From Methanobrevibacter sp. (GTDB lineage Archaea > Methanobacteriota > Methanobacteria > Methanobacteriales > Methanobacteriaceae): 64,000 nt of DNA. The position numbers were made by a program, and so were the translations under genes. The notes under the pieces are model-generated. The model was not told the DNA's origin. It saw only the letters and a program-made list of their open reading frames with translations, and did no database searches. Shown one piece after another: positions 1 to 63,340 of the stretch; position 1 is the first letter of the stretch; the number at the start of each line of letters is the position of its first letter. The DNA lies in NCBI GenBank assembly GCA_017473945.1, contig JAFUIW010000122.1, positions 10,540 to 74,539 on the forward strand, written 5' to 3'.

Positions 1-388
1 AAAGTTCTTCAGGAGGTGTGCGTCTGAAACGCGCAATCATTTCCTCTTTAGTCTCTTCATCCTTGAATTTCTTGTTTGCATCAGCATCGGTGATTCTTAA
101 TGCCTCGCCAGTGTCCTGATTGTAGAATGTTGCTGCAAATTTACCATAATACATCTGTTTTAATGTTCTTTTACCCATGGAACAACCGGTAACTGACTGA
201 ACTGCATCGGACATGCACCTGTCGATTTCAAGAAATACAATCAAGTTTTTATGCCTTTCATTTAACGGCATTCCAAGAAGTTCAAGCCCATACATTGCAA
301 GCTTTGTACCTATTGCAATTCCACCACAGATATGTCCATGAAAATCACGTGCCTTTGCCAATTGTTCATCATAATCCTTTTCATTCAT
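1..388 (-). CDS. FmdE/FwdE-family domain protein (3' end cut by window edge)
   Basis: Own translation from ATG at 386-388 (minus): MNEKDYDEQLAKARDFHGHICGGIAIGTKLAMYGLELLG... It carries the FHGHxCxG motif typical of the formylmethanofuran dehydrogenase subunit E family. It is absent from the ORF track because there is no stop in the window. It starts 9 nt after the ABC ATPase stop. Confidence 0.7.
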   Translation of the reverse strand, partial: MNEKDYDEQLAKARDFHGHICGGIAIGTKLAMYGLELLGMPLNERHKNLIVFLEIDRCMSDAVQSVTGCSMGKRTLKQMYYGKFAATFYNQDTGEALRITDADANKKFKDEETKEEMIARFRRTPPEEL

Positions 389-397
389 CTTAACACC

Positions 398-1201: not shown

Positions 1202-2205
1202 TCTGAATAACCCCTTTTAAGCAAGTATAAAAATATCGGAACTCCAATTATCGCAGTCAATATCCCTATTGGAATTTCAATGGCAATAACAGCTCGAGAA
1301 ATGTTATCAATCAATAATAAGAAACTTGCACCCAAACTAAGTGATGCTGGAAGTAGAATCCTGTTGTCCGGACCTACAATCATACGTGCCATGTGCGGAA
1401 TGATTAAACCTACCCAACCGACAATGCCACTTATTGAAACCGCAGCAGAGGTAAGCAATGTGCATCCTGCAATTATGAGCAATCTGATTCTTGACGGATT
1501 CAATCCTAAAGATTGGGCCTCCTCATCACCCATTGCAAGCAGATTCATGTGCCATCTGAGCATCAACAAAATGATTAATCCCATAATTACAGGAACAGCA
1601 ATCATAAGCAGCTCATCCATATTTATGGAAGCAAGACTGCCCATCAGCCAGTATACGATTTCAGGCAACTTGTCATCGGGATCGGCTATGAATTTAATAG
1701 CTGAAATCAATGAATTGAAAAATGCAGATATTGCCACCCCTGATAAAACCAGAACCAATATTCCTCCCGCTTTATAAGTTTTTGAAATCAAATATGTAAT
1801 TGATACTGAAATCAACCCGAAAATGAAAGCGAATATCTGAGTAACCACATTTGCACCGCTGATTAAAATTGCCAATGCTGCACCGAAACCTGCACCGTTA
1901 GAAACTCCAAGCAAATCAGAGGAAACCAACGGGTTTTTAAATATTGACTGGAATGCCGCACCTGAAATGGCCAGACATGCACCTACAACAATAGCCCCGA
2001 TTATTCTAGGAAGTCTGATTTCAAAAACTATAGTTGTAATTGTTGGCGAAACTTCAAGTTGCGGAAAAATCGGACATAAAATAGTCTTTATTACATCAAT
2101 TGGGCTGATTGGATATCTTCCAAGTAAAAATGAAGCGAAAAATAAAACAATAGGAAAAAAGATTAAAAGTATGATACTTATAATCTCTTTTGTTTCCTTA
2201 TCCAT
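1192..2205 (-). CDS. FecCD/BtuC-family ABC transporter permease
   Basis: 337 aa polytopic membrane protein with FecCD-like conserved stretches (LLGVSNGAGFGA, GIVGWVGLIIPH). Operonic with the ATPase and binding protein. Confidence 0.9.
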   Translation of the reverse strand: MDKETKEIISIILLIFFPIVLFFASFLLGRYPISPIDVIKTILCPIFPQLEVSPTITTIVFEIRLPRIIGAIVVGACLAISGAAFQSIFKNPLVSSDLLGVSNGAGFGAALAILISGANVVTQIFAFIFGLISVSITYLISKTYKAGGILVLVLSGVAISAFFNSLISAIKFIADPDDKLPEIVYWLMGSLASINMDELLMIAVPVIMGLIILLMLRWHMNLLAMGDEEAQSLGLNPSRIRLLIIAGCTLLTSAAVSISGIVGWVGLIIPHMARMIVGPDNRILLPASLSLGASFLLLIDNISRAVIAIEIPIGILTAIIGVPIFLYLLKRGYSEWS

Positions 2206-2214
2206 AGAATTCCC

Positions 2215-3321
2215 CTATAAGTTTGATTCCTTAAGTCCTGAATCCAATAACAGCTGTTTAGCATCACTGTCACTTAAGTCAATGTGATAGAAGTCAGTGT
2301 AAAATTCCTGAGTAGCTCCTACCATGTCAATGTCTTTGTATTGATCAGGATAAATTACCTTAGCTGTCCAAGGAACGCCAATAATCATGTTAGCTCCAAC
2401 AGGCCTGTCAAACCATTTGAACGGGGACTGTGGAGACAGGTATACCTCATGATTTTTAACAGCATCTATTTTTCCCCAGTTTGAATCTGAATAGACACTT
2501 GCATAAAACTCAGGGTCAGTTGTAATGATTACCTCAGGATTCCAGCTAATCACCTGCTCCATTGACACCTGAACGCCATTTGTTGTATTTCCTTGACCTG
2601 TCGCATCAGCGACATTGACACCACCAACCAAATCAATCAGCTGCCCATGTGTGGAGTGTGAAGGATTTGTCTGAAGTCCGTCATCACCCTGAGCATAGTA
2701 AACAGTTTTTTTATTACTGTCAGACAATTTTGATGATTTGTCATGAACAATATCAAGATACTTGTTATTGAAGTCATTTAACTTATTAGCATTGTCTTCA
2801 GCACCAACGACCTCACCCATAAAGAGTATTGATTCACCAATCTTTTCAATGTTTGTTGTATCCCTAACTGCAATTACCGGAATTGTTCCAAACTTTTCCT
2901 GACGTTCCTTGACTGTGGAGGCATCGCCGTCACCGCCCTCATCAATTGATTCTATGATGACATCAGGTTCTGTGGCTATGAATTCCTCATAGCTTCCGTC
3001 CTGTGTACCATACCAGCCACCTACATTAGGATAATTTGCATATTGACTAGGAACATACTTCAATTCATCGTCAGTCCACTGGAAATTAACCGCCTTGAGT
3101 TTATCAGGTGCAATCATGTACAAGACAGTAGTCATTGGAGGACTTGTTGCCACAACATTGCTAACAGAATTCGGAACTTCCACAGTCCTATTAATCATAT
3201 CAGTACTATTTTTAGAACCTTGACTTTCTACAGTCGAAGGAGATAAAAACAGGTGTGTAGCTATTCCTGCTACGACCAAAACAATCAACAACAGTATTAT
3301 TACTTTAATTTTCTTTTCCAT
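2215..3321 (-). CDS. ABC transporter substrate-binding protein (iron-siderophore/cobalamin class)
   Basis: The ORF runs to 3363, but ATG at 3321 (MEKKIKVIILLLIVLVVAGIA) gives a signal/anchor helix preceded by a G-rich SD. Position in the FecCD operon fits. Confidence 0.8.
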   Translation of the reverse strand: MEKKIKVIILLLIVLVVAGIATHLFLSPSTVESQGSKNSTDMINRTVEVPNSVSNVVATSPPMTTVLYMIAPDKLKAVNFQWTDDELKYVPSQYANYPNVGGWYGTQDGSYEEFIATEPDVIIESIDEGGDGDASTVKERQEKFGTIPVIAVRDTTNIEKIGESILFMGEVVGAEDNANKLNDFNNKYLDIVHDKSSKLSDSNKKTVYYAQGDDGLQTNPSHSTHGQLIDLVGGVNVADATGQGNTTNGVQVSMEQVISWNPEVIITTDPEFYASVYSDSNWGKIDAVKNHEVYLSPQSPFKWFDRPVGANMIIGVPWTAKVIYPDQYKDIDMVGATQEFYTDFYHIDLSDSDAKQLLLDSGLKESNL

Positions 3322-3646
3322 TATAAAACCCCAAACGAAATATCGATAAGAATATATATTCATTAAGTTATTAAATAATTTTTCTAAAATTTGATAGTTT
3401 AATATAAATAGGAATTTACTATGATAAATAGATATTTGAAAAAAATTATCATTTTATTATCCATAATAAATAAGTTAAATAATGATTTTAAAGTTAAAAG
3501 AAAATTTTAACGTAATGATTTTAATTACTAAAGATGAAAAATAATGATTAAATATTATAAATTAACGCTGGAATTTCAAACGATATGTGAATTAATACGT
3601 ATGGCGCTGAAAAAGATATATAACAGTCATAAACTAAAATAGTATT

Positions 3647-18882: not shown

Positions 18883-19587
18883 CTATAATACAGCTACCAA
18901 ATAATAAAGAATAGAAGTTACTGCAGGAACAGTTAAATTGTCTATTCCGCCATAACTGAATGCTTCACATACTGTTGCAACAGCAGAAATACCAATAATA
19001 TATACAATATTGAATTCAGGCATTGTACATCCAATTGATGCAAAAACCATCCATACAAATACACTCATTACAGTGGTTACTACAAACATAGTAAGTGATC
19101 CTTCAAGAGATTTTGTACCTCCGAATACTGTGTATTTAACTTTTCCGAATTTTTGACCAATCAATGCTGCAAAACCATCACCATAAACCATCGGAACAAT
19201 AGCTAATGCTACAATCCAAATGAAGAATTTAGGATCGTTTGCTGGTGCAATTGTTGTAAATACAGCAATTAAAATTGTCCAAATGCCCGCATAAAAGAAT
19301 AAACCTAATGCATGACCGGATTCTGTTACACTGTTTTCTATTTTAATTGGTGAGTATTCAGTCAAGAAGAATAATGCAATTGTAATCGGCAATGTTAAAA
19401 ACCAGACCATTACCCATGGATCTGAGAAAAATGGCATGGCAAATATCATGTTACCTACCATGATATGTAAAAACTTACGTGATACTTCAGGTCTTGTCTT
19501 TAAAACCAATTCAGCTACAACGAAAATGATAGCTACATAAATATATACAACAATTAATGCAAGGATGTCTGTGAATATCATCAGCAA
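18883..19587 (-). CDS. polyprenol/dolichol kinase-like membrane protein (SEC59/DGK1/VTE5, CTP-transferase-1 superfamily)
   Basis: 234 aa polytopic protein. SRKFLHIMVGN and YGDGFAALIGQKFGK motifs resemble the RK..H and GD..A..G..G signatures of this family. Confidence 0.55.
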   Translation of the reverse strand: MLMIFTDILALIVVYIYVAIIFVVAELVLKTRPEVSRKFLHIMVGNMIFAMPFFSDPWVMVWFLTLPITIALFFLTEYSPIKIENSVTESGHALGLFFYAGIWTILIAVFTTIAPANDPKFFIWIVALAIVPMVYGDGFAALIGQKFGKVKYTVFGGTKSLEGSLTMFVVTTVMSVFVWMVFASIGCTMPEFNIVYIIGISAVATVCEAFSYGGIDNLTVPAVTSILYYLVAVL

Positions 19588-27821: not shown

Positions 27822-29654
27822 TCATATCTGTGGAATTCTTTCATTGGTATTTTGGGCGGTCCATCCAGCACCGAAACTGGAATAAGTATTTTTCAATTGG
27901 GTTTTAGTAGATGATTTCAGGTTATATTTCAGTTTAACAACCAAACTTTGTGTATTATAGTTGTTGAACATGTTTTTCATATAGTTAACAGTTAACCAGT
28001 TTGTCGGAATGCTATGGCTTCCATGGTCATAATCCCCTGAAGGATTACCTACCAAAACCTTTTTGCCGTCTTTGCTGATATCCAAAATTGCCACATAATG
28101 ACCCCAAGTATGGAAAATTAAAGCACAACCGCCTTTTTTAAGTTGGTTTATAGCTTTATCATATGATGATTTATAAAAATAACTGCATTTGAAGTTAGAC
28201 TTTTCCAAACCTGCCTTAAGTAAATTAGCAAATGATCCGTCCCTGACAGTAGTTTTGGAGAGTTTTGCTAGCTGTTTTTCACAGATATAACTTTTCAGGA
28301 ATTGTGTGCACATGCTTGAAGATGTCGGACCACATGTATATCCCGTATTCTGCACATCCCTGACTTGAGGATATGTATAAGACTTTCCGCTTAATGAAAC
28401 TGTTATGGAGCCCGGCCAATAGTTGTTCTTATTGGCTTTAACGATTTTTATATTGATTGCCCGTTCTATAACGTTCCATTTTTCACGCACCAGAATATGC
28501 TGTAAATTTGGTTCAGATTTAGTTTTGAAATACACATATTTTGACAATTTTTTATTCAAATACAGGAAATAACTATCTCTTTTGATTGTTTGCTGGTATT
28601 GTGCTTTGAGAAGAGTGTATTTCATATCCTCATCAGCCATCACATAATTGGCAGGCATCACATCAATATCCGGAGAACCGTTTACCAATGGAATTTTTTG
28701 TTTTGTCGGATTTTTTACATCACCGACAATACAACTGACCTTTTTGGATGCCTTACTGGAAAATACAGTTGAAGTGCCTGCAAAAGTGGCAGTTATTTCG
28801 TAATCCCCTACTTTCATATTAGGTTTAAATACCACAATACCTTCAGTGTTAGTTGTTTTAGTAAATGTCTTGCTGCCTATTTTTACAGTGACTGTTTTTT
28901 TAGAAATTGCGGAAAATGTTGAGCTTTTTAAATAAACTCTCAAATGACCATTAGTCAATAATTTATTGTTGCCCACAACTATGGAGGTTACTGCGGGAAC
29001 AATCATGGATACTGTTTTTGAGGAGGAAGCATAATAATCATTTCCAGCATAAGAAACTGTCATTGAATATTTTGCATCTGCATTTAAGTTTATTTGAAGT
29101 CCAGCCCTGCCTTTATCGTTTGAAATTTTATTATAAGTCTTTCCATTAATATTGAATGAAACTGTTTTACCTGTTAAAGCATTACCAAAATTATCCTTCA
29201 AGTCAACATAAAAATAGTTACTTTTTAAAACAGTGGTATTAACCGGAGTGATAATGCTAGACAATTTTAAAACTTTTACGTTAAATATCTTATTGACTGG
29301 AGAATAAAGGTCATTTCCAGTAAAAATAACATTGAGATCATAAGAATTTGGTTTTAAATTCAAATTTAAACCAGCCACACCCTCATCGCCAGTATTGATC
29401 ACATGATTTTTATTGTTAATATTTGCGGTTAAATTCTGATTTGAAATAGGAGCATCATTTGAATCTTTTAAAGAAATTCCAATAGACTGACCCGTATAGA
29501 CATTTGAAGAATCAACTGATATTGTTGGAGTTTCCTTAATTAACTCCGTACTATTTGTATCGTCAGCAGTAGTATTATCACCGGCAGATACTGCTGCTAT
29601 GCAGAAAACTGATAAAATAATGCAAATAATTAAAAATTTTAACTTTTGATTCAT
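27822..29654 (-). CDS. adhesin-like surface protein with C-terminal papain/C39-like cysteine peptidase domain
   Basis: 610 aa. Signal peptide MNQKLKFLIICIILSVFCIAAVSA. Four Ig-like modules (FNINGKTYNKISNDKGRAG and others). C-terminal GYTCGPTSSSMC (Cys) and ALIFHTWGHYVAILD (His) motifs. Confidence 0.8.
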   Translation of the reverse strand: MNQKLKFLIICIILSVFCIAAVSAGDNTTADDTNSTELIKETPTISVDSSNVYTGQSIGISLKDSNDAPISNQNLTANINNKNHVINTGDEGVAGLNLNLKPNSYDLNVIFTGNDLYSPVNKIFNVKVLKLSSIITPVNTTVLKSNYFYVDLKDNFGNALTGKTVSFNINGKTYNKISNDKGRAGLQINLNADAKYSMTVSYAGNDYYASSSKTVSMIVPAVTSIVVGNNKLLTNGHLRVYLKSSTFSAISKKTVTVKIGSKTFTKTTNTEGIVVFKPNMKVGDYEITATFAGTSTVFSSKASKKVSCIVGDVKNPTKQKIPLVNGSPDIDVMPANYVMADEDMKYTLLKAQYQQTIKRDSYFLYLNKKLSKYVYFKTKSEPNLQHILVREKWNVIERAINIKIVKANKNNYWPGSITVSLSGKSYTYPQVRDVQNTGYTCGPTSSSMCTQFLKSYICEKQLAKLSKTTVRDGSFANLLKAGLEKSNFKCSYFYKSSYDKAINQLKKGGCALIFHTWGHYVAILDISKDGKKVLVGNPSGDYDHGSHSIPTNWLTVNYMKNMFNNYNTQSLVVKLKYNLKSSTKTQLKNTYSSFGAGWTAQNTNERIPQI

Positions 29655-29663
29655 GAATTCACC

Positions 29664-31517
29664 TTAACTTAGTCCTAATGTCGCATGAGTGTTATGTCTT
29701 GCCCAGTTTGCACCCATACTTTTATAAAAACAATCCACCTGATTTTTCGTTGAATTTGAAAGAGAATAGTTTAATTTTACAATCAAACTGTCATCATGAT
29801 TTTTAATAAATCGGGTTTTCATGTAATTAACTGTCAACCATTTGGTTGGTATGTTATAATAAGTTTTATAGGAGTTACTTACTAAAACTTTTTTGCCATT
29901 ATTACTTATATCTAAAATTGCCACATAATGGTTTTTAGTGTGAAAAATTAATGCACAACCTCCTTTTTTAAGTTCATCCAATGCTGTTTTAAAAGAATTT
30001 TTATAGAAATAAGTGCAGTTGAAATTATTGCCCAGCGCTTTTATCATACCATGACATGGAGTGCCTATAACTTCCTTGGAACCAGCTTTTTTAGCCAAAT
30101 ATTTTTCAGACATGTAATTTCTTAAAACCTGACTGCAGACACTTGCTGAAGTCGGTCCACAAGTATAATCTGTATTTTGCACATCACGAACCTCAGAGTA
30201 GGTATATGATTTTCCTTTCAGGGAAACTGAAATCTTGCTTGGCCAGTACTTGTATTTGTTTGCGTTAACTATTTTCACATTGATGGCCCTTTCAATAACA
30301 TTCCATTTTTCACGTTTTACTATGTGATTGGTGTTAGGATGAGATTTTGTCTTGAAGAATGTGAATTTGGATAGTTTATTATTTAAAAACAGACAATAAC
30401 TGTCCCGTTTAATAACCTCTTTGTATTGTGTTTTTGTTAGTGTGTATGTTGCGCTTCCATCTGCCATGACATAGTTTTTAGGCATCAAATCAATGTCCGG
30501 AACACCATTTTTTAAGGGAACAGATTCATTTAACGGATCTTTTACATTTCCTTTAATCCCATTGACCTTTTTGGAAGTCCAATATTTTCCATATTTTACC
30601 GTAACTTTATATTCCTTTGCATCCAGATTCGGTTTTAAGACAATGATACCTTCAGAATCTGTTTTTTTAGTGAATTTCTTATTAGCTATTTTGATTTTAA
30701 GAGTTTTATGGGAAATATCTGAAACTGAATAATCCTTTAAATAAATCCTCAAATATCCGTTGGTAAGTAATTTGGAATTGGCAATATCAATGTTGGTGTA
30801 ATGCATCACGCGCAGGTTAAACTTGATTTGAGATGACTTGTAATAATTATTTCCACCATATTTTAAAGCAACTGAGTAAGATGCTGGTGCCAATTTTATT
30901 TTAAATCCACAACGACCATTTTTATTTGTGGTTTTAAAGTAAGTTTTTCCGTTAATTTTAAATGCTATTTTTTTATTTGGAAGAGGATTGCCTATGTTTG
31001 ATAACTCAGCGTATAAGTATTTACCCCTCACTACAAAATTAGCATGATTTGTGAGTTTTGTATCCAATTTTGAAACTTTAATATTGAATTTTTTAGAAAC
31101 GGATTTATATTGGTCATCACATGCAAATGAAACAATCAGTTTATAAGTTTTTGCAGGAAGAGATAGGTTTAAACTAGCAATTCCATTGGAATTTGTGGAT
31201 GTGGAATATTTTTTACCGTTTATCAATAGAGTCAAATTTTTAGATTTAAGCAAACTGCCAGAACTGTTTTTCAGATAAACTGTTAGAGTGTCTTTAGCCT
31301 TCAGCTTTGTTGTTTTTACACTGACAACAGGACTTGTCTTGACAACTTCAACTGTTGAATTGTCTTCAGAACTACTGGACAAATTCACATCATCAAGATT
31401 TATGCCGCCATCTGTTTCATTAATCGTTGTTTCATTCAAATCGTCAGCTGAAACAAATGATACTGTGAAGATTATTAAAAACAGCAATATTATGAAAAAA
31501 GTTATTCTATTGAACAT
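29664..31517 (-). CDS. adhesin-like surface protein with C-terminal cysteine peptidase domain (tandem paralog)
   Basis: 617 aa with the same architecture as its neighbour. DYTCGPTSASVC and ALIFHTKNHYVAILD motifs. About 55-60% identity by eye over the C-terminal 300 aa. Confidence 0.8.
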   Translation of the reverse strand: MFNRITFFIILLFLIIFTVSFVSADDLNETTINETDGGINLDDVNLSSSSEDNSTVEVVKTSPVVSVKTTKLKAKDTLTVYLKNSSGSLLKSKNLTLLINGKKYSTSTNSNGIASLNLSLPAKTYKLIVSFACDDQYKSVSKKFNIKVSKLDTKLTNHANFVVRGKYLYAELSNIGNPLPNKKIAFKINGKTYFKTTNKNGRCGFKIKLAPASYSVALKYGGNNYYKSSQIKFNLRVMHYTNIDIANSKLLTNGYLRIYLKDYSVSDISHKTLKIKIANKKFTKKTDSEGIIVLKPNLDAKEYKVTVKYGKYWTSKKVNGIKGNVKDPLNESVPLKNGVPDIDLMPKNYVMADGSATYTLTKTQYKEVIKRDSYCLFLNNKLSKFTFFKTKSHPNTNHIVKREKWNVIERAINVKIVNANKYKYWPSKISVSLKGKSYTYSEVRDVQNTDYTCGPTSASVCSQVLRNYMSEKYLAKKAGSKEVIGTPCHGMIKALGNNFNCTYFYKNSFKTALDELKKGGCALIFHTKNHYVAILDISNNGKKVLVSNSYKTYYNIPTKWLTVNYMKTRFIKNHDDSLIVKLNYSLSNSTKNQVDCFYKSMGANWARHNTHATLGLS

Positions 31518-54709: not shown

Positions 54710-56575
54710 ATGGATTACGAAAAATTAGGATTAAAAATGGGACTTGAGATTCACCAACAATTAAACAGCCAGCACAAACTGTTCTGCCCATGCAAAACAG
54801 AGCTTGTGGATGATGATTACTCAGAGCTTGTTCAAAGAAAATTAAGGCCAACACAGTCCGAACTTGGTGAAATCGACCGTGCAGCTTTACAGGAATCCCT
54901 AAGAGGATTGAACTTCAAGTATGAAAACTTTGAAAACCACACCTGCCTTGTTGAAAACGATGACGAACCACCTCACAGCCTGAATGAGGAAGCCTTAGAC
55001 ATCTGTATCACAATCGCTTGTCTTATGAACATGCACATTGTCGACGAATTCCACACAATGCGTAAACAGGTTATTGACGGAAGTAACACCGGAGGGTTCC
55101 AGAGGACAGGTATGGTTGCAACCGACGGATATCTTGACACACCATACGGAAAGGTTGTCATTGAAAGTCTTGGCCTTGAAGAAGACGCAGCAAGAAGAGT
55201 TGAAACCAAAGACGGATTTACCGAATTTAGATTAGACAGATTAGGTATACCATTAGCTGAAATAACAACAGATCCTTCAATGCACCATCCGGACCAGGTA
55301 AGGGAAGTTGCATACATGCTAGGTCAGATATTGAGAAGTACCAATGTTAAAAGAGGTCTTGGTACAATCAGACAGGACCTGAACATTTCCATTGCTGAAG
55401 GCGCACGTGTTGAAATTAAAGGTGTTCAGGACCTTGACTTAATGGCCGAAATCGTAAACCGTGAAGTAACAAGACAATTAGAATTAATTGATATTAAAAA
55501 ACAATTACAATCAAGAAACGCTGAAGTTCTAGAAGAGATTCATGACCTTGATGAGTTATTTACTGATACTGAATCAAAAATATTGAAATCAGCTGAAACA
55601 ATCAAAGCAGTTGTTTTAAAAGGATTTAACGGACAAATTGGTCGTGAAGTGCAACCTGGAAGAAGGTTCGGTACTGAAATTGCGAGTTATGCTAAAAAAC
55701 GTGGAGTTTCAGGAATATTCCATTCAGATGAATTGCCGGCTTATGGAATAACCCAAGAGGAAGTTGACAAGGTAAACGACTTTTTAAACATTGGCGAGGA
55801 AGATGCATTCATCATTGTAGCTCACGATGAGGATATTGCGATTTCCGCACTGGAAGAAGTCAAAAGAAGAGCAAACCTAGGTTTAGAAGGTGTTGTTGAA
55901 GAGACAAGAAAAGCTCTTGATGACGGCAACACAGAATACATGAGACCTCTTCCAACTGCAAACAGGATGTATCTTGAAACAGACATTCCATTATTCAAGA
56001 TCACTTCAGACAGAGTCGAGCCTATAGCTAACAACTTGCCTGAATTGCCTGACGTAAAACAGGCAAGGATTATTGAAGAATACAAGTTAAGTGAAGACCT
56101 GGCAACACAGCTTGTCAAAAGGCAGGAAGCTGACGTGTTTGAGGCAATTTTGGCTGACGTTGATGTTGATGCAACACCAGTCGCTTCACTTCTTGCTTAT
56201 GACCTTAGAGAAATCAAAAGGGAAGGTCATGACATTAACGTGTTAACCTTAGATCACTTTAAAGGAATTTTTACATTGCTTGCTGAAGGAAAAATAGCTA
56301 AGGACAGTATTCGTAAATTGGCTGTTGAAACCATCAACGCACCTGATAGCGATATTGCCGAAATCGCTGAGAAAAACAATCTTGTAATGATGAACGATGA
56401 AGAGGTTCAAAAGATTATTGCTGAAATTGTTTCAAACAATGAAGGAATGGTTAAAGAGCGTCAAATGGGTGCAATGGGTCCTTTGATGGGAATGTGCATG
56501 AAACAACTTAAAGGAAAAGCAGACGGAGGACTTGTAAATAAAATAGTCCGTGAAGAAATTCAAAAATTTATATAA
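54710..56575 (+). CDS. gatE: Glu-tRNA(Gln) amidotransferase subunit E
   Basis: [18 protein letters not shown]... from ATG 54710, with an AGGTGG SD inside the gatD stop region. The track ORF begins at GTG 54701. Confidence 0.92.
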
Positions 56576-56611
56576 GGAAACTCACACGAGTTTCCATTTA
56601 AACTCTTTTTT
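56576..56611 (+). terminator. gatE terminator hairpin plus T-tract
   Basis: GGAAACTC-ACAC-GAGTTTCC immediately after the TAA stop, then CTCTTTTTT. Confidence 0.7.
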
Positions 56612-56629
56612 AATACTGTAAAAAATATT

Positions 56630-56645
56630 TTTAGGAATACCTAAA
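56630..56645. promoter_or_regulatory. palindromic box TTTAGGAATACCTAAA (DtxR/IdeR-like iron-box candidate)
   Basis: Perfect 6-N4-6 inverted repeat, 11 nt upstream of the TATA at 56657. Confidence 0.5.
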
Positions 56646-56656
56646 AAATAGAAAAC

Positions 56657-56663
56657 TTTATAT
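56657..56663 (+). promoter_or_regulatory. TATA box candidate (TTTATAT) with A-rich BRE-like flank
   Basis: AAAACTTTATATGC. The geometry is conserved with copy 2 at 60412. Confidence 0.45.
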
Positions 56664-56687
56664 GCTACCTACAACAACATTATAATT

Positions 56688-56905
56688 GGTGATGAAATTT
56701 AGGTTAGCCTAAAATTCAAATCACATTATTAGTCAAATAAACACAAAAAACTCTCCAAAATTAGAAAAGTGTTGAATTAGATTTTCACAATTTCTCTAAT
56801 TTGATACAAGTCGTTGGAAAATTAAAAAAATCTGCCAAAAAATAATTTTCCTCAAAACATTCGGTGTTTAATTCGTCGGTTAAACACCCATTATCTCTCT
56901 TTTTT
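56688..56905 (+). ncRNA. candidate small non-coding RNA, copy 1 (predicted ends approximate)
   Basis: No ATG on the plus strand from 56714 to 56905. About 95 nt are nearly identical to 60513-60609. Ends in hairpin GGTGTTTAA-N8-TTAAACACC (56863-56888) plus a T6 tract (56900-56905). Confidence 0.35.
56698..56713. promoter_or_regulatory. palindromic box TTTAGGTTAGCCTAAA (DtxR/IdeR-like iron-box candidate)
   Basis: Perfect 6-N4-6 inverted repeat, 34 nt downstream of the TATA. This is the expected +5 to +25 region of a transcript. Confidence 0.5.
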
Positions 56906-57069
56906 AAAAAATGGATTTAAATTTAACTAATCACACTATTCTGATTACATTTCTAACCAACGATATTTTTAACTACATCCTTAGAATATTTAACTAAAAA
57001 AACTTATTTTAGACAAAATATATAGATTCCATTACTATTTGAAAAAAAGATGAATTTCTGGAGAACATC

Positions 57070-57207
57070 ATGATCGAGAAAGAATGCTACAACTGCAAAC
57101 ACATGGAATTTGATATCAGCCTTTGCACTCAATACTACTGCAGATTACACGAAAAATTAACTAAAATGGACGATACATGTGATGACTGGAGCGAATCATC
57201 AAATTAA
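57070..57207 (+). CDS. small Cys-rich protein (45 aa), below the ORF-track size cut-off
   Basis: Own translation: MIEKECYNCKHMEFDISLCTQYYCRLHEKLTKMDDTCDDWSESSN. GGAGAA SD 5 nt upstream of the ATG. Five Cys including one CxxC. Confidence 0.45.
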   Translation: MIEKECYNCKHMEFDISLCTQYYCRLHEKLTKMDDTCDDWSESSN

Positions 57208-57284
57208 GTTACACCTATTGATATCCCAATATAATTTGACTATGGTACAAATCCCGTGCACCTAATTAAAGTGAAAATCAGAGC

Positions 57285-57926
57285 TTATTCAACATCAAAA
57301 CCCTTTTGCTCCATACTGTTTTTAAGAATCTCCATAGCCTTAATTGTATCAGGCCCTGAAACCCTCTTAATCATACGATTGTTTTCATTAAACCTTCCAA
57401 CAAAATAATCCTGCTGTTCTTCACTTACAAGGTCAAGTCTAGTATAGTTTGTAAGGCATTCCAGAAGTGCAAACAGACCACGGTTTAAAGCCTTTGCACA
57501 TGGATTGTTTTTGACGATTTCTACAACATCACTGCTTATTATATAAGCTTCCCCATTTGATGTGACGTGGTCTTTAATAGGATCCATTTTTCTAATGTCT
57601 GTAACATCACAAATGACATATGCTTCTGCATTTTTCAATATTGCAATGTCCTCATCATCTGTAAACTCTTCAATATCCAGGTTTCCTATTGTTGAATTTG
57701 CAAAATTTATAGGGTCAAAAGTAATGTTTACAACATATTTTCGTGTTTCCATAATGTTTTTAAGAGTCTGTGTGCCGACAAATAGTCTGCATCCAAGTTT
57801 GTCCTTGCCTTTGCATACAATTCCTATCGGCGCTGCATTTTTTACACCACTTTTGCTCATGGTAGTGTAAATTCCTTCATATTTCTGTCCTTCTTCAATT
57901 CCTATATCAGTCAAATCCATAGACAT
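57285..57926 (-). CDS. DUF447-like (FMN-binding split-barrel-like) protein, tentative
   Basis: The ORF runs to TTG 57971, but ATG 57926 is preceded by a GGTGA SD. EGIYTT...KNAAPIGIV resembles the DUF447 N-terminal signature. Confidence 0.45.
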   Translation of the reverse strand: MSMDLTDIGIEEGQKYEGIYTTMSKSGVKNAAPIGIVCKGKDKLGCRLFVGTQTLKNIMETRKYVVNITFDPINFANSTIGNLDIEEFTDDEDIAILKNAEAYVICDVTDIRKMDPIKDHVTSNGEAYIISSDVVEIVKNNPCAKALNRGLFALLECLTNYTRLDLVSEEQQDYFVGRFNENNRMIKRVSGPDTIKAMEILKNSMEQKGFDVE

Positions 57927-58212
57927 TTTATCACCAGAATAATTTACCATTTCAATGATAATATCTATCAATCAATCTAATTAAAAATTTAGGTTAACAT
58001 CCCACATTTTGTTTGAAACTTGAATTTGAAAAGCAGTTAATGTACATGGGAAACTGAAAAACAAATTGGTTCTTAAAAACATTGCAGTTAATGAAATATA
58101 CATATAATTAAATCATGATTAAATACATTTCTTTAAATATAATTAACAGCAAAATAAATTATTTGATAGGCGATACCTATTGAGAAAAATAAATGGAATG
58201 CTGAAGTTGAAG

Positions 58213-60231
58213 CTAACCAAATCCAGCCAATAGCCCAATGTTATAAATTAAAAATGAAACTATATATGCAGTCACAATAGTGATGGCGCACATCGCCAAA
58301 GCCCATCTGTAACCGTTTGTTTCATGCTTGATTGCACCGATTGTACCGAAACATGGAGTATATAGCAAAGTGAACGCCATAAATGCATATGCAGACAATG
58401 GAGTAAATGTATCATGTATCAGATGAGTTATGCCTCTTTCATCGCCCTCTTCCATACCTCCAAGAGTACCGAAAGTTGATACGATTACTTCCTTAGCCGC
58501 CAATCCAGCAATGATGGACACAGCAGCCTGCCATGTGCCGAATCCCAATGGGGCGAAAATCGGAGCGATAAACTGACCGATCATTCCAAGGATACTGTCT
58601 GCAGATCCGTATTTTACACCCAGCGGGAAGATGCTTAATGCCCACAATACTATGGAACATGCAAGAATTACGGTTCCCGCCTTTCTTATGAATCCCTTAA
58701 CCTTTTCCCATGTATGCAGAAGCACACCTTTAAGGGAAGGAACCTTATATGACGGAAGCTCCATTACAAATGGAGTTGACAGTCCCTTAAACAATATCCT
58801 TTTAAGAATTGCCGCAACAATAAGTGCCACCAAGATTCCTAAAAGATAGATTGACAACAATATTAATGCATTATATTCTTTAAAGAATGCTGCAATGAAA
58901 ATTGCATAAATCGGAAGTCTTGCAGTACATGACATGAATGGAACAAGCATCATAGCAAGTTTACGGTCGTTTTCACTTTCCAAAACTCTTGTTGCCATAA
59001 TGGCAGGCACACCACAACCGAATCCTAAAATCATTGGGATAAATGCCTTGCCATGAAGGCCGACCAACTTATGCATGAATATGTCCATTGTAAATGCTGC
59101 CCTAGCAAGATATCCGCAATCCTCCAGAATGCTTAAGAATAAAAATATTATAACGATGATTGGCAGGAAAGAAATAACTCCTCCCACACCTCCGATGACC
59201 GCATCACATAAAAATGATGCAACATAATAATTCGGAATGAAGCTTGCCACAAATCCGGAAAGCATTGAAAAACCCTGTTCGATTAGCTCCTGAAAAGGGG
59301 ATCCCACAGCATAGGTTACTTGAAACATTATCAACATTACAATTACAAAAATAGGAATCGCCAGTATCCTGTTTGTAATAATTTTATCTATTTTATCACT
59401 GATGCTTTCACCTTCAACGGCAGGCCTTTCAACAGCTTCCGCCATCAGACCGTCGATGAAAGCATATCTTGCACCTGCAACAACCTCTTCCACACCTTCA
59501 CCGTAGATATCGTAAAGGTGTCTTGAAACCTTGTCGGTTTCTATGAAAATTGATGAGCTTTCAGATGACTTTTGAACTTTCTCAATGACAATTGTGTCCT
59601 TTTCAAGCAGTTTGATTGCGGTCCAGAGTGACGGCACATTGAGCAGGTTTTCATCTTTTTCAATCAATTTCTGCATATCTTCCAAGTGTTCCTTTAACTC
59701 TGCACCATATGCCAGTTTTTTACTTGAATCAACAGGTTTTGCCGCTTGCCTTTCCACAATGGTGAAGAGTTCATCGATTCCTTCACCAGTTTTGGCATTG
59801 ATTTCAACAACAGGAAATCCCAAAAGTTCACTCATCAAATCAATATCTATTATGTGACCTCTTCTTTTAGCATAATCGTTCATGTTAAGCGCCATGACCA
59901 GGTTTGCCCCAAGTTCCATCATCTGAACCGTGAGGTACAAGTTACGTTCAAGATTGGACGCATCGACCACATTGACAATAACGTCTGAATCATCATCGAC
60001 GATGAAGTCCCTTGACACTATCTCTTCCATAGTGTGGGCGCTCAATGCATAGTTTCCCGGCAAATCGATAATGTCATAATCATATTTACCATGTGAAAAG
60101 TGACCTTTTGCCTGTTCAACCGTTTTTCCAGGCCAGTTTCCAACATGCTGGTGCATACCAGTCAATTCGTTGAAAACCGTTGTTTTTCCAACGTTTGGAT
60201 TGCCCGCCAATCCAACTATCAATTTCACCAT
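58213..60231 (-). CDS. feoB: ferrous iron transporter B
   Basis: 672 aa. N-terminal G domain GNPNVGKTTVFNELTG, DLPG, NMND, followed by a polytopic permease domain. No feoA-like ORF is adjacent. Confidence 0.93.
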   Translation of the reverse strand: MVKLIVGLAGNPNVGKTTVFNELTGMHQHVGNWPGKTVEQAKGHFSHGKYDYDIIDLPGNYALSAHTMEEIVSRDFIVDDDSDVIVNVVDASNLERNLYLTVQMMELGANLVMALNMNDYAKRRGHIIDIDLMSELLGFPVVEINAKTGEGIDELFTIVERQAAKPVDSSKKLAYGAELKEHLEDMQKLIEKDENLLNVPSLWTAIKLLEKDTIVIEKVQKSSESSSIFIETDKVSRHLYDIYGEGVEEVVAGARYAFIDGLMAEAVERPAVEGESISDKIDKIITNRILAIPIFVIVMLIMFQVTYAVGSPFQELIEQGFSMLSGFVASFIPNYYVASFLCDAVIGGVGGVISFLPIIVIIFLFLSILEDCGYLARAAFTMDIFMHKLVGLHGKAFIPMILGFGCGVPAIMATRVLESENDRKLAMMLVPFMSCTARLPIYAIFIAAFFKEYNALILLSIYLLGILVALIVAAILKRILFKGLSTPFVMELPSYKVPSLKGVLLHTWEKVKGFIRKAGTVILACSIVLWALSIFPLGVKYGSADSILGMIGQFIAPIFAPLGFGTWQAAVSIIAGLAAKEVIVSTFGTLGGMEEGDERGITHLIHDTFTPLSAYAFMAFTLLYTPCFGTIGAIKHETNGYRWALAMCAITIVTAYIVSFLIYNIGLLAGFG

Positions 60232-60383
60232 TATAGCTCTCCAACTTATTAAATTTTATATTAAAGATTACAATCGTTTTGATTTTCTAAATCTTTCCTT
60301 AAAAAAATTAGTGTTCCTCAATTATGTTTATATTTTCTTCTTATTTTATTTAAATTATAGATATGAAGGTTGAAGGATTTTAA

Positions 60384-60399
60384 TTTAGGTTAGCCTAAA
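60384..60399. promoter_or_regulatory. palindromic box TTTAGGTTAGCCTAAA (iron-box candidate) on the feoB side of a shared TATA
   Basis: Identical to the box at 56698. Lies 12 nt from the TATA at 60412-60419, so it would sit near the TSS of a minus-strand (feoB) transcript. Confidence 0.5.
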
Positions 60400-60411
60400 T
60401 TTTTAGAAAGG

Positions 60412-60419
60412 TTTATATA
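60412..60419. promoter_or_regulatory. TATA box candidate TTTATATA (near-palindromic, possibly bidirectional)
   Basis: AGGTTTATATACT, flanked by the two boxes. Confidence 0.45.
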
Positions 60420-60442
60420 CTATGAAAACATACTTTAATACA

Positions 60443-60667
60443 AGTGACATATATTTAGGTAAACCTAAATATTCACTTTAAACAAGACATATTATTAGTC
60501 AATAAAACAAAACTCTCCAAAATTAGAAAAGTGTTGAATTAGATTTTTCACAATTTCTCTAATTTGATACAAGTCGTTGGAAAATTAAAAAAATCTGCCA
60601 AACAAAATTAATTTTCCTCAAAGCTGGTGTTTAATACGTCGGTTAAACACCAATTATCTCTCTTTTT
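60443..60667 (+). ncRNA. candidate small non-coding RNA, copy 2 (predicted ends approximate)
   Basis: No ATG from 60470 to 60667. The conserved core is shared with copy 1, apart from a T4/T5 indel. Hairpin GGTGTTTAA-N8-TTAAACACC (60626-60651) plus a T5 tract (60663-60667). Confidence 0.35.
60454..60469. promoter_or_regulatory. palindromic box TTTAGGTAAACCTAAA (iron-box candidate)
   Basis: Perfect 6-N4-6 inverted repeat, 34 nt downstream of the TATA. This is the same spacing as in copy 1. Confidence 0.5.
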
Positions 60668-60699
60668 GAAAATAATTTCCAAAAAAATTATTCAATACT

Positions 60700-60740
60700 A
60701 AAAATAAAAAAAGTAAATAACTGCCGAAGCAAGTTATTTT
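60700..60740 (-). terminator. strong hairpin (UUCG loop) plus T-tract terminator of ALP 60734..63340
   Basis: Minus strand AAATAACTTGC-TTCG-GCAGTTATTT, overlapping the TAA stop and followed by ACTTTTTTTATTTTT. Confidence 0.7.
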
Positions 60741-63340
60741 TTAATTTTAACAGTCTTTTTAACAGTATCTTTCAGGTAGGTAGCCTGATAGGTAACTTTC
60801 TTACCAACCTTCAGCTTTTTCAAGACACTTGAAGTAATGGTTGCCTTTGCAACACCTTTCTTATCTGTTTTTGCCTTGTAGGTTTTACCATTGAACTTGA
60901 AGGTTACTGTTTTCTTGGTTAAGTATTTGCCGTTTATTTTACCCAAAGTAGCTTGCAATACCAGTTTTTTAGCTGATTTTTTTACAGCTACTGACTTCAA
61001 GGTTACCAAATGATTAACAGTTATTGTTTTTGTTACTGATTTACCAAGTGCGGAAATGGTTATCTTGTAGGTTCCTGGAGCCTGTGTTACTTTAAACTTA
61101 GCGATACCATTTTTTGCTGTTAGTGTTTTTGATATTCCACCAGTTATTTGAACTGCACCATTTACAAGTTTTCCATCAGTTCTGGTAACTTTAATTATAT
61201 AATATGAACCTGAAGAATAAACAACCTTAACATTGGATGCAGTAATAACTGTAGCTACTGCAGGAGCCGCTTTAACTAAAGTTCCATCTCTTGCAAATGA
61301 TAAATATTTGTCATCTCCAGAGTATGTTATTGTGAACGGATAACTACCATAACTTAAATCAGGCATTTTAACAGTAATATTACCATTCTCAACAGCAAAA
61401 TCATATGAGTTACCATTGACATTTAGTGTAACAGTACCGGTTGCATCATTAGGCAAATTAATTGGAACTAAACTGCCACATGGAATTTTACCGAAAGTAG
61501 ATGGGAAATTAATAGCTATTTTAGGATTTTCTGTCTTATTATCAGTATTGGTTTTAATTACATTAAAAGTACCATTGGCTGAGAATGGGGAGTACTGTGC
61601 ATCTCCTGAGTAAGATATTACATATGGATAATCGCCATCATCTAAGTCAGGCAATCTAATTTTAGCAACACCGTTTACCATTTCTGATTTATAATCAGCG
61701 CCATTAATTGTTAGTGTAACGGTACCAGTAGCATCGCTAGGCAAATTAACCACAGCAGTTGGGTCGTCCAACAACCCATCAGAAGAAGGAATGATAAGTA
61801 CGGAACTGTTTGTAACATAAGTATAATTTGCTTTTTCATAAACTATCAGTTTGAATGAAGATCTTGAAGATTCATATTTTGAAGTTCCATCATAAACGAC
61901 AGAAATTGTATGAACTCCAGATTTTGATGGAGTGTAAGTCAATTCTGCAATACTCTCCTTAACATCTGCCTGACCTATTTTGGCATTATCATCAAAGAAA
62001 GTGACCGCACCTTCGTTAATTGTTTTGACACTGCTCACTGCTACAATTAAAGTTACTTTCTGACCTACAGTTGCATTTAAATCATGACCTCCCACACTAG
62101 TTGGGGCTTTGTTGACATGGATTTTTGCGGTTTTTGTTGCAGCATCATGATTTGCATCCTTAACTGTTGAAACAGTCAAAGTATGATTACCCATATCCAA
62201 GTTATTAGGAATCATTATTGTATTTCCAACCACACTAATATCTTTTCCATCAATATTGGCAGTGAACTTGACAGTTCCATCACTGTTTAATACAATATTC
62301 AAAGAACTTCCATATGTTAAATTGACATCCTTGACATTGCTTAAATAATCCGCTTTGTTGATATTTATGGTAGCTGTTTTGGTTACAGGATTGTGATTGG
62401 AATCCGGAACTGTTGTAACGGATAAAGTATGAGTGCCCACATTCAAGCCATAAGGAATCATTATTGTATTGTCTATTACCTCAACCTCTTTTCCATCGAT
62501 TTTTGCTGTGAATTCAGTAACGCCTTCGGTTGATACTGTGATATTGGAAGACATTCCATATTCAAAGTTAAAACTATCCTTAATGCCAATTAAAGAATCG
62601 ACTTTATTTACAGTTATTGTAGCTGTTTTAGTAGTAGCTACATGATTATCATCTGGAACTGTTGTAACAGATAAAGTATAATTTCCCACATTCAAAAGAG
62701 GAATTGAAATCACATTTCCACTAACATTAACTTCCTTGCCGTCAATTTCAGCAATGATTTTGGTTGCTCCGCTTGTATTAATTTTTATTGTAGAAGAATT
62801 ACCATAATTTAAAGTAATATCCTTAAGTTCCCTTAAAGATTCAGCCTTGGTAACTGTTATTGTTGCTGTTTTTGTAATCGGATTGTGATCATTATCAGGA
62901 ATGGTTGTGACTGATAATTTATGAGTACCGAGATTCAACTGAGGAATTGTAATTGTAAATCCATCAACATCAATAGGATTATCATCAATTTTAGCAGTAA
63001 TCCCTGTTGCTCCATTAGCTTGAACAGTAATACTTCCGATACTGCCATACTCCATATCAAAATCTCCAACGTTACTCAAAGATGAATCCTCCTTACTTAC
63101 AGACATATCATCATCATTTGAATTTAATGCATCATTCTCATCAGAAGACATAGCAACTGAATCCTCTGAGTTTATTTCATCATCTGATGCAGATAACGTA
63201 TCTGTATCTGATAAATTTAATTCTTGATTAATTTCATCACTTGCAACTACCGTTTGATTCACATCACCAGCACAAACGCTTGCAATGGTGAATAAACAGA
63301 TAATAAAGCAAATGAATATGAATAATTTTTTACATCCCAT
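60734..63340 (-). CDS. adhesin-like surface protein with tandem Ig-like repeats and Lys-rich C-terminal module
   Basis: 868 aa. Signal peptide MGCKKLFIFICFIICLFTIASVCA. Acidic S/D-rich linker. Four repeats of about 85 aa ending TKTATITVxKA. Two repeats with the ..LP.DATGTVTL..NG core (VVNLPSDATGTVTLTING, INLPNDATGTVTLNVNG). C-terminus VTFKFNGKTYKAKTDKKGVAKA...VKIKK. Confidence 0.85.
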   Translation of the reverse strand: MGCKKLFIFICFIICLFTIASVCAGDVNQTVVASDEINQELNLSDTDTLSASDDEINSEDSVAMSSDENDALNSNDDDMSVSKEDSSLSNVGDFDMEYGSIGSITVQANGATGITAKIDDNPIDVDGFTITIPQLNLGTHKLSVTTIPDNDHNPITKTATITVTKAESLRELKDITLNYGNSSTIKINTSGATKIIAEIDGKEVNVSGNVISIPLLNVGNYTLSVTTVPDDNHVATTKTATITVNKVDSLIGIKDSFNFEYGMSSNITVSTEGVTEFTAKIDGKEVEVIDNTIMIPYGLNVGTHTLSVTTVPDSNHNPVTKTATININKADYLSNVKDVNLTYGSSLNIVLNSDGTVKFTANIDGKDISVVGNTIMIPNNLDMGNHTLTVSTVKDANHDAATKTAKIHVNKAPTSVGGHDLNATVGQKVTLIVAVSSVKTINEGAVTFFDDNAKIGQADVKESIAELTYTPSKSGVHTISVVYDGTSKYESSRSSFKLIVYEKANYTYVTNSSVLIIPSSDGLLDDPTAVVNLPSDATGTVTLTINGADYKSEMVNGVAKIRLPDLDDGDYPYVISYSGDAQYSPFSANGTFNVIKTNTDNKTENPKIAINFPSTFGKIPCGSLVPINLPNDATGTVTLNVNGNSYDFAVENGNITVKMPDLSYGSYPFTITYSGDDKYLSFARDGTLVKAAPAVATVITASNVKVVYSSGSYYIIKVTRTDGKLVNGAVQITGGISKTLTAKNGIAKFKVTQAPGTYKITISALGKSVTKTITVNHLVTLKSVAVKKSAKKLVLQATLGKINGKYLTKKTVTFKFNGKTYKAKTDKKGVAKATITSSVLKKLKVGKKVTYQATYLKDTVKKTVKIKK
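62095..63055 (-). repeat. four in-frame tandem repeats of about 85 codons inside the ALP gene
   Basis: Repeated blocks: ..HKLSVTTIPDNDHNPITKTATITVTKA / ..YTLSVTTVPDDNHVATTKTATITVNKV / ..HTLSVTTVPDSNHNPVTKTATININKA / ..HTLTVSTVKDANHDAATKTAKIHVNKA. Confidence 0.7.

Follow-up and report, generated by a model that had tools for sequence, protein, structure and literature searches.

We analyzed a 64,000-nt stretch of genomic DNA from Methanobrevibacter sp. (contig JAFUIW010000122.1 of assembly GCA_017473945.1, positions 10,540 to 74,539; hereafter, the window), which contains exactly two copies of a noncoding RNA (ncRNA) gene, both on the plus strand, at approximately 56689-56905 (copy 1) and 60444-60667 (copy 2). 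On balance, we slightly favor over its negation the interpretation that these copies are metal-repressed, most likely iron-repressed, stand-alone ncRNA genes of ~220 nt that act by pairing with mRNAs and represent a Methanobrevibacter-wide family. The parts of this interpretation differ in strength: we have high confidence that each copy is a regulated stand-alone ncRNA gene and moderate confidence that iron is the signal, whereas base pairing, which we infer as the mechanism, is held with lower confidence than the iron signal. The anatomy of the gene, its conservation, the purifying selection acting on it, and its independence from the neighboring genes were established by the sequence comparisons presented below.

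The two copies have a common core of ~190 nt, a 31-mer of which occurs twice in the window versus zero times in 100 shuffled sequences, and no third copy was detected by the nhmmer profile of the family over the window. The host is an archaeon, as indicated by the presence of gatE, the adhesin-like proteins (ALPs), and the GC content of 34%, and the relatives found were all Methanobrevibacter metagenome-assembled genomes (MAGs); the window matches a MAG contig of GCA_964296425.1 (gut metagenome), and it encodes Eha/Ehb-type hydrogenase genes and many ALPs. Homologs of the RNA gene were collected by two independent scans with exact patterns, the first using a 20-mer of the 3' arm of helix P2 against one genome per species (10 loci) and the second searching metagenomes for the P3 loop combined with the P4 stem (19 loci). 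With the window included, these scans yielded 29 distinct full-length copies (alignment A4), and all identifiable carriers are rumen or gut Methanobacteriales. Related loci are given L numbers below.

The upstream side of the gene is syntenic, with either gatE or feoB as the neighbor. The gene directly upstream of copy 1 is gatE, encoding the archaeal Glu-tRNA(Gln) amidotransferase subunit E (GatB_N, GAD, and GatB_Yqey domains), and copy-1-type genes follow gatE in the window, in L001, L005, L006, L009, L022, L027, L028, and L029, and in others. Among the genomes sharing the gatE neighbor, the RNA region is 85.5% identical, compared to 62% at the third codon positions of gatE and 93% at its first and second positions; the RNA gene is therefore under purifying selection approximately as strong as that on protein sequence. 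An interspersed repeat or miniature inverted-repeat transposable element (MITE) was ruled out, as each locus has no more than one or two copies, which keep their syntenic places next to gatE or feoB, and the MITE-like sequences encountered are inserts within some copies rather than the RNA gene itself.

In both copies, a TFB recognition element (BRE) and TATA box are bracketed by two palindromes TTTAGG-N4-CCTAAA at fixed spacing. In copy 2, the first palindrome of the DtxR-family type (operator box 1, TTTAGGTTAGCCTAAA, 60384-60399) lies 13 nt upstream of the TATA box and between the divergent promoters of the small RNA (sRNA) and feoB. It is followed on the plus strand by the archaeal core promoter (60405-60419), composed of the purine-rich, BRE-like AGAAAGG and the TATA box TTTATATA at 60412-60419, and then by operator box 2 (TTTAGGTAAACCTAAA, 60454-60469), which corresponds to approximately +11 to +26 of the predicted transcript and doubles as the RNA hairpin P1. 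The copy 1 unit (56630-56905, plus strand), which lies 56 nt 3' of gatE, has the same layout, with the TTTAGG-N4-CCTAAA palindromes of box 1 at 56630-56645 and box 2 at 56698-56713, the plus-strand TATA box at 56657-56664, the predicted plus-strand transcript at ~56689-56905, its terminal hairpin at 56863-56888, and a T6 run at 56900-56905. The position of the TATA box (TTTATATA/G) is invariant in all copies, and in 13 of 13 genome copies the start-to-start spacing is 26-27 nt from box 1 to TATA and 41-43 nt from TATA to box 2.

Perfect TTTAGG-N4-CCTAAA boxes occur only four times in the 64 kb, two per copy; allowing two mismatches adds just three further sites, all of them intragenic and about the number expected by chance. 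Within ~240 kb of DNA (the window and L001-L030), all exact core boxes TTAGG-N4-CCTAA are located at most 120 nt from a copy. Judged from the sequence, the two perfect boxes flanking BRE/TATA and the start site would be the metal-regulator operators that characterize the class of iron-sparing sRNAs. By analogy with known archaeal repression, box 1 would sit directly against the BRE, and box 2 would be covered by the polymerase. Matches to bacterial sigma-70 promoters were dismissed because the host is archaeal and bacterial promoter logic does not apply to it; the same scan listed both hairpins as terminator-like.

Archaeal transcription usually starts ~24 nt past the TATA box. Since a conserved G in the motif G(T/A)GA is found at this distance in copy 2, the start site was placed at ~60444, giving a predicted plus-strand transcript of ~224 nt (60444-60667) that would end at a T5 run. 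An earlier note on this DNA, made from the letters alone, had presented the feature as a second copy of a candidate sRNA beginning at 60470. The feature is real, although that start is slightly late: the conserved unit begins with the promoter at 60384, and the RNA itself probably starts ~26 nt upstream of the position proposed. The note also overlooked the archaeal nature of the host and the BRE/TATA promoter with its two flanking candidate metal-repressor operators.

The RNA of copy 2 folds with a minimum free energy of -43.4 kcal/mol (z = -4.66), and the consensus fold consists of four helices, P1 to P4, of which P1 is the box 2 palindrome (99.4% paired). The hairpin P2 (GUGUUGAAUUAGA / UCUAAUUUGAUAC, 60531-60570) has 13 bp including three G·U pairs and a conserved 14-nt loop, UUUUUCACAAUUUC. 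One of its pairs is GU in 18 copies, AU in 9, and GC in 2, and another shows a compensatory change; P2 is remodelled with compensating changes in L015 and L021, and a different hairpin takes its place in L029. The linker AUACAAGUC between P2 and P3 (60567-60575) is a point of insertion or truncation in other genomes. The hairpin P3 (GGAAAAUUAA / UUAAUUUUCC, 60579-60617) is 99.1% paired, with one compensatory GC-to-AU change in L002, and the core of its loop (AAUCUGCCAA, 60592-60601) shows no variation among the 13 copies whose retrieval did not depend on it. The hairpin P4 (GGUGUUUAA-N8-UUAAACACC, 60626-60651) combines an invariant stem with a variable loop; this invariance holds in the 13 copies found by a pattern excluding P4, whereas in the metagenome set it is given by construction, the P4 stem being part of the search pattern. 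All 13 genome copies end with GGTGTTTAA-N7-9-TTAAACACC followed by (A)TCTCTCTTTTT. In copy 2, the 3' tail AUCUCUCUUUUU (60656-60667) contains a second C/U-rich motif and the oligo-T archaeal termination signal.

The hairpin GGTGTTTAA-tacgtcgg-TTAAACACC at 60626-60651 and the T5 run at 60663-60667, both described in the earlier note, are present in copy 2 as claimed. Its further observations on the similarity between the copies were also reproduced: they have the same architecture and an identical hairpin stem, the copy 1 loop ttcgtcgg differs from that of copy 2 at one position, and the flanks immediately 5' of the hairpin have diverged.

The alignment of the 29 copies supports this fold, as 98.5% of the helix cells are paired compared to 33-56% when the partners are slid by 1-3 columns. 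Three compensatory pair changes were found, and covariation is limited because the sequences are highly similar. The single-stranded motif ACUCUCC (60512-60518, plus strand), a C/U-rich, anti-Shine-Dalgarno-like candidate seed, precedes P2; the corresponding (A/C)TCTCC is near-invariant in the 29 copies and is unpaired in both the consensus and centroid folds. The RNA contains 16.7% C versus 10% G, and its unpaired conserved segments ACUCUCC, CCUC, and AUCUCUCU are complementary to Shine-Dalgarno sequences of the GGAGAG and GAGG types, the feoB site being GGAGAG. The most divergent member of the family (L015, 4430-4700, minus strand) keeps box 1 and the TATA box and has box 2 swapped for the palindrome TGTGGAAAAACACA; its P2 and P3 are shortened with compensating changes, and its ACAAGUC motif stands after P3, not before it.

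Several features of the sequence point to transcription of the plus strand. The BRE lies 5' of the TATA box, a polarity favoring this strand; the three G·U pairs of P2 form only on the plus strand and become A·C mismatches on the minus strand; and the oligo-T run follows P4 only on the plus strand. Runs of six or more T terminate archaeal RNA polymerase. None of the 29 copies contains such a run internally on the plus strand, whereas the minus strand averages 1.66 of them per copy.

The neighbors of copy 2 correspond to those in the earlier note, which described the copy as transcribed divergently from feoB and followed only by the 3' end of a convergent ALP gene. The gene for the ferrous iron transporter FeoB occupies 58213-60231 on the minus strand (Pfam FeoB_N, Gate, FeoB_C, and FeoB_Cyto) and is divergent from copy 2, whereas an 868-aa adhesin-like gene with Big_3_5 repeats by Pfam (60734-63340, minus strand) is convergent and lies 67 nt past the T-run of copy 2. 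Downstream of copy 2, the plus strand has no gene that a leader could serve. Among the 13 genome copies, nine are followed by a convergent gene, at a distance of 11-380 nt, and the genes that do follow on the same strand are unrelated to each other. This lack of a conserved same-strand downstream gene speaks against a cis-regulatory leader or riboswitch. The stand-alone reading advanced in the earlier note has thereby gained comparative support, as the same unit of promoter, RNA, hairpin, and T-run recurs in 29 distinct copies.

One of the cases that the note itself had named as fatal to this reading, transcription of the minus strand only as a long feoB leader, is unlikely, since the feoB promoter and start site are situated between feoB and the element and the minus strand of the element carries internal T6+ runs. 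A TATA-like box of feoB (TTTAAATA, 60346-60353, minus strand) is invariant in a six-species alignment of the upstream region. The feoB start site was placed at ~60324 (minus strand) from the adaptor-capped end of an RNA contig at L022:5631; in run X57, this contig runs into Illumina adaptor sequence at 5631, and the feoB ATG follows 105 nt further downstream. Because the start site at ~60324 lies between feoB and the element, the element would be excluded from the feoB leader. The feoB gene has no adjoining feoA, and its leader is ~93-105 nt long (window 60232-60353; L022 5527-5631).

The alternative of a cis-acting element, be it a riboswitch or 5' leader serving a downstream gene, or of a minus-strand long feoB leader or antisense RNA, can nevertheless draw on two observations: a small Cys-rich open reading frame (ORF) lies on the same strand 165 nt past copy 1 in three related genomes, and one L022 copy is convergent with feoB, with RNA contigs joining both. 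However, copy 2 and most homologs face a convergent gene, the Cys-rich ORF is found 3' of copy-1-type genes only in the window, L007, and L008, and the feoB promoter and start site separate feoB from the element. Furthermore, the minus strand carries T6+ terminator runs and is unable to form P2, and no Rfam riboswitch was matched. We regard a cis-acting or antisense role as highly improbable. The Cys-rich ORF itself (57070-57207, plus strand, 165 nt past copy 1) encodes 45 aa with the pattern CxxC...C...C...C, possesses its own TATA-like box and a GGAG site, and shows 84% conservation to its counterparts in L007 and L008. The public gene caller missed it, and Pfam returned no match.

The notion that the RNA encodes a very small protein has almost no probability in our assessment. 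A frame of 14-15 codons (TTG ATA CAA GTC ... TAA) is open in both window copies, but the length of its A-run differs by 1, 2, and 3 nt among homologs, and in L001, L003, and L021 the frame is split by inserts of 65-85 nt. Moreover, there is no ATG anywhere on the plus strand of copy 2, and a 1-nt indel in the core separates the window copies. A small-protein gene was rejected on these grounds, since every candidate frame contains indels of 1-2 nt and inserts of 65-85 nt.

Searches against Rfam 15 returned zero matches at gathering thresholds for the whole window. At E<=10, the region 56400-61000 produced four chance-level matches, none of them within copy 2; one, a weak match to SNORD111 on the minus strand at 56725-56800, overlaps the 5' part of copy 1, with 19.5 bits against a gathering threshold of 46 (E=8.7). 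A C/D-box or H/ACA guide RNA was likewise rejected, as no family reached the Rfam threshold and inspection by eye revealed neither a 3' D box nor an internal pocket in P2.

Public RNA data were available as unstranded assembled contigs of low depth from related species. Rumen and faecal metatranscriptome contigs cover the conserved core in related species, as well as in L010, and the flanks are covered too. The clearest pattern was obtained for L022 in run X57: coverage is zero across 3080-3267, comprising the intergenic region, box 1, and the TATA box, and a contig begins at 3268, 12 nt past the predicted start site at 3256. The DNA-like 'RNA?' runs, unlike X57, cover the L022 promoter continuously. 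In faecal runs X57 and X58, a contig carrying the 5' two-thirds of an L017-like copy (L017 1132-1543) reaches a depth of 212, the deepest of its locus, compared to ~100 for the upstream thi4-like gene and 26 for the downstream gene, suggesting that this copy is strongly expressed in vivo. With the exception of L022, the contig mappings (6 of 7) show presence without direction or clean ends. The RNA contigs are thus evidence of transcription in vivo, and of neither its strand nor its exact ends.

The identity of the regulator and its metal are predicted from the operator. The box coincides with bases 1-14 of the classical DtxR consensus, TTAGGTTAGCCTAACCTAA. Leyn & Rodionov reportedly predicted, in 2015, that archaeal DtxR-family regulators of Fe, Mn, and Zn use related palindromes and control feoAB, among others. 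The box is almost identical to the semi-palindromic motif TTTAGGC-NNN-CCTAAA determined by ChIP-seq for the Haloferax volcanii TroR, a DtxR-family iron repressor (PMC10783522). TroR represses iron-uptake genes when iron is replete (PMC10783522). In addition, copy-2-type genes stand divergently beside feoB in four species (window, L007, L008, and L022/L024).

The same RNA gene might instead respond to another signal, through a Mn2+ or Zn2+ paralogue of DtxR or an unrelated dimeric factor, in which case it would serve a different stress response and the feoB neighborhood would be incidental. This would fit the similar palindromes reportedly shared by the archaeal Fe, Mn, and Zn regulators of the DtxR family, the location of copy-1-type genes beside gatE, which is not an iron gene, and the lack of a box at the iron-type ABC transporter in 1-3363. 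It is at odds, however, with the near-exact match to the Haloferax iron-repressor motif and with the recurrence of the divergent feoB pairing in several species, and we consider it rather unlikely. The transporter region (window 1-3363, minus strand, and 3364-3646) comprises an FmdE-domain gene and an iron/cobalamin-type ABC transporter with ATPase, permease, and Peripla_BP_2 components; no TTTAGG-N4-CCTAAA box is present upstream of these genes.

Under the favored interpretation of an iron-controlled, pairing RNA, a DtxR-family repressor would occupy both operators when the metal, most likely Fe2+, is plentiful, blocking TBP, TFB, and RNA polymerase. When the metal is scarce, the RNA would be made from the BRE/TATA promoter and would end at the oligo-T run after P4. 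It would fold into P1-P4, leaving ACUCUCC, CCUC, AUCUCUCU, and the loop AAUCUGCCAA single-stranded, and these stretches could pair with the purine-rich ribosome-binding regions of mRNAs, adjusting the proteome to metal shortage. The RNA would then be an iron-sparing riboregulator of the RyhB/IsrR kind.

Potential targets were sought with RNAduplex by pairing the conserved single-stranded segments with the 56 start regions of the window. The best duplex (-23.3 kcal/mol), formed at the start of the ORF at 18883-19581, uses the AUAUUAUUAGUCAA and ACUCUCC segments; this target is not claimed, as 3.7% of shuffled seeds did equally well and copy 1 reached only -17.3 kcal/mol. This minus-strand ORF encodes a 232-aa membrane protein with no Pfam match, and its start region GGAGAGUAUUGCUGAUGAUAU is complementary to ACUCUCC and AUAUUAUUAGUCAAU of copy 2. 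When the full-length RNA was folded as a duplex with feoB leaders, the only products were long zippers judged to be artefacts.

A number of results weigh against this interpretation. With regard to pairing, the best duplex (-23.3 kcal/mol) was equalled by 3.7% of shuffled seeds and is not significant among 56 start regions, and the local UUCCUCAA/UUGAGGAA match to the feoB leader, present in the window and L007, is lacking in L008, L022, and L014. A purely seed-driven sRNA would not typically be conserved over almost its whole length or have an invariant P4 stem, and the P2 loop of copy 2 carries a T5 run (T4 in copy 1) that could end some transcripts early. With regard to the regulator, tblastn with DtxR and MntR identified no DtxR-family gene in the window and ~239 kb of related loci, and the sequence gives no choice among Fe, Mn, and Zn. 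The link to feoB is weakened by the position of box 1, ~60-73 nt upstream of the predicted feoB start site, which makes direct repression of feoB by the box doubtful, and by the L014 lineage, which retains feoB with merely a degenerate box. Finally, the RNA contigs are unstranded and some extend over flanks or promoters, so that read-through from neighbors or DNA contamination is possible; the L017-like contig spans the promoter, and read-through from thi4 may contribute to it.

In L014 (700-980; the species of L010), the only copy is linked to gatE, and a degenerate box, TTTAGGTATGCCTTAA, and a short remnant, GAAATTATTAGTTAAA, are found beside feoB. This arrangement suggests that the L010/L014 lineage lost copy 2.

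Some of these results would be accommodated if the gene and its metal control were the same and the structured RNA bound or sequestered a protein, or acted within a ribonucleoprotein, with the P4 stem and the P3 loop as recognition elements. Conservation near full length (85.5%) extends beyond short seeds, the P4 stem is invariant with a variable loop even in the copies found without P4, insertions are tolerated only in the P2-P3 linker, and no significant mRNA target was found. On the other hand, no protein partner is known or encoded nearby, the negative target result covered just 56 genes, and C/U-rich anti-Shine-Dalgarno motifs in single-stranded regions are typical of base-pairing sRNAs in AT-rich genomes (PMC9410917). 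We regard protein binding as an unlikely explanation, albeit less so than the other alternatives.

A homolog of the sRNA that is 83-86% identical to the host copies was found in a 34-kb circular virus of Methanobacteriales, Caudoviricetes sp. vir323 (BK063679.1). It is located on the minus strand at 3369-3551 of L033 (BK063679.1), equivalent to 1284-1480 of L031 (an IMG/VR contig of the same virus), within the head-morphogenesis module, where it fills an unannotated interval flanked by the prohead protease gene and a small ORF. The homology sets in near the predicted start site, with a degenerate box 2, and viral sequence stands in place of box 1 and the BRE/TATA; sharing only the predicted transcribed part, the viral homolog supports the placement of the start site. 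Pfam searches of ten ORFs of vir323 revealed no integrase. The virus may use its copy as an auxiliary sRNA that has escaped metal control, or as a homology region for integration.

The P2-P3 linker ATACAAGTC (window 60567-60575) is a hot spot of insertion and truncation. Homologous MITE-like inserts of 75-85 nt flanked by ACAAGTC repeats are present in L001 (5577-5650) and L003 (2076-2160), and another insert occupies the linker in L021 (~270-335). L012 (3246-3360) and L025 (2090-2194) contain half-copies consisting of only the part 3' of the linker site and starting exactly there. The L025 half-copy is preceded by an inverted copy of the terminal 13-mer of the insert, TTAAGACATACCA, and by a 597-aa ORF (251-2044). 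The idea that this ORF encodes an integrase or transposase is unsupported, as it had no match in Pfam, PHROGs, or PDB sequences.

The insertions and truncations exactly at ATACAAGTC in L001, L003, L021, L012, and L025, together with the homolog in a 34-kb methanogen virus, are what one would expect if the element acted at the DNA level as a recombination or attachment site for viruses or mobile elements, as tRNA genes do, with its transcription being incidental. Yet an attachment site needs neither 200 nt under selection nor a BRE/TATA with two operators, helices kept by G·U/A-U/G-C exchanges, and an oligo-T end. The genes that serve as attachment sites, such as those for tRNA and tmRNA, are themselves functional RNAs, and no integrase was detected in the virus or beside the half-copy. 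A mainly DNA-level role is very unlikely in our view.

Two further observations concern the adhesin-like genes of the window. Tandem repeats of ~246 nt at 62095-62938, within the adhesin-like gene convergent with copy 2, correspond to Ig-like Big_3_5 units. At 28045-30314, two adjacent paralogous adhesin-like genes have common blocks that are 71-76% identical.

Few known cells need as much iron as methanogens, with their iron-rich hydrogenases, polyferredoxins, and ferredoxin oxidoreductases, and their iron rationing is poorly understood. As far as sequence can show, the genes described here would constitute a new RNA family, representing a known kind of regulator in a host domain and under a regulator family for which no case has been described. 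The literature searched yielded no archaeal small RNA responding to metals, no iron-responsive sRNA in methanogens or Methanobrevibacter, and no paper on the present family. More speculatively, the family might be the first archaeal iron-starvation riboregulator, carried in one or two copies by the dominant methanogens of gut and rumen, repressed by a DtxR-family protein, and remodelling the very iron-rich methanogenic proteome under iron scarcity; the virus, having captured the transcribed part but not the operators, could then impose a false 'iron-starved' state on the infected host. The association of an RNA gene with an archaeal iron-repressor motif makes a RyhB-like archaeal iron-sparing circuit directly testable. 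Since Methanobrevibacter dominate enteric methane production, the gene would also help to study how they live in the rumen and gut, two habitats with competition for iron. In addition, the virus copy and the hot spot suggest that archaeal mobile elements may target small RNA genes or carry them as cargo.

Among known systems, IsrR of Staphylococcus is a Fur-repressed iron-sparing sRNA of 174 nt with two operators in its promoter (PMC9410917). Like IsrR, the RNA described here would be stand-alone and of similar size (~220 versus 174 nt), belongs to an AT-rich genome, and has two predicted metalloregulator operators in its promoter. The three stem-loops and the terminal hairpin with a U-run of IsrR (PMC9410917) resemble the four hairpins and T-run of the present RNA. 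Both have several conserved single-stranded C-rich motifs fit for G-rich ribosome-binding sites, and both are conserved genus-wide together with their operators. In contrast, there is no sequence similarity between them, the host is archaeal, the promoter and terminator are of the BRE/TATA and oligo-T kind, the operators are of the DtxR rather than the Fur type, and function is proposed here from sequence alone. The RNA also resembles RyhB, PrrF1/PrrF2, FsrA, and IsrR1 as a small RNA predicted to be operator-controlled and to belong to the iron regulon, beside an iron-uptake gene, and it is duplicated as are PrrF1 and PrrF2. These RNAs share neither sequence nor structure with it; they are under Fur control, and most of them require Hfq or another chaperone. 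Unlike the tandem PrrF1/PrrF2, the copies in the window are 3.7 kb apart and flank the feoB region.

Three sRNAs of Methanosarcina mazei offer a further comparison: sRNA154 (nitrogen, NrpR), sRNA41, and sRNA162 (PMC3510493). To our knowledge, none of them has been reported to be metal-responsive. They are archaeal, have the operator of a global nutrient regulator in the promoter, and act in trans by pairing at or near ribosome-binding sites, as is proposed for the present RNA; they differ in belonging to another order (Methanosarcinales), in responding to nitrogen, and in their sequences. On the side of regulation, the gene can be compared with the archaeal DtxR-family regulons, which reportedly include the FetR, MntR, and ZntR regulons of Leyn & Rodionov, and with that of TroR in H. 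volcanii (PMC10783522). The targets in the TroR study are protein-coding and sRNAs or small RNAs are not mentioned, whereas in the DNA sampled here the operators occur only at the RNA gene; the two systems nevertheless have in common the TTTAGG-N4-CCTAAA operator, which overlies the core promoter in both, and a connection to feoB.

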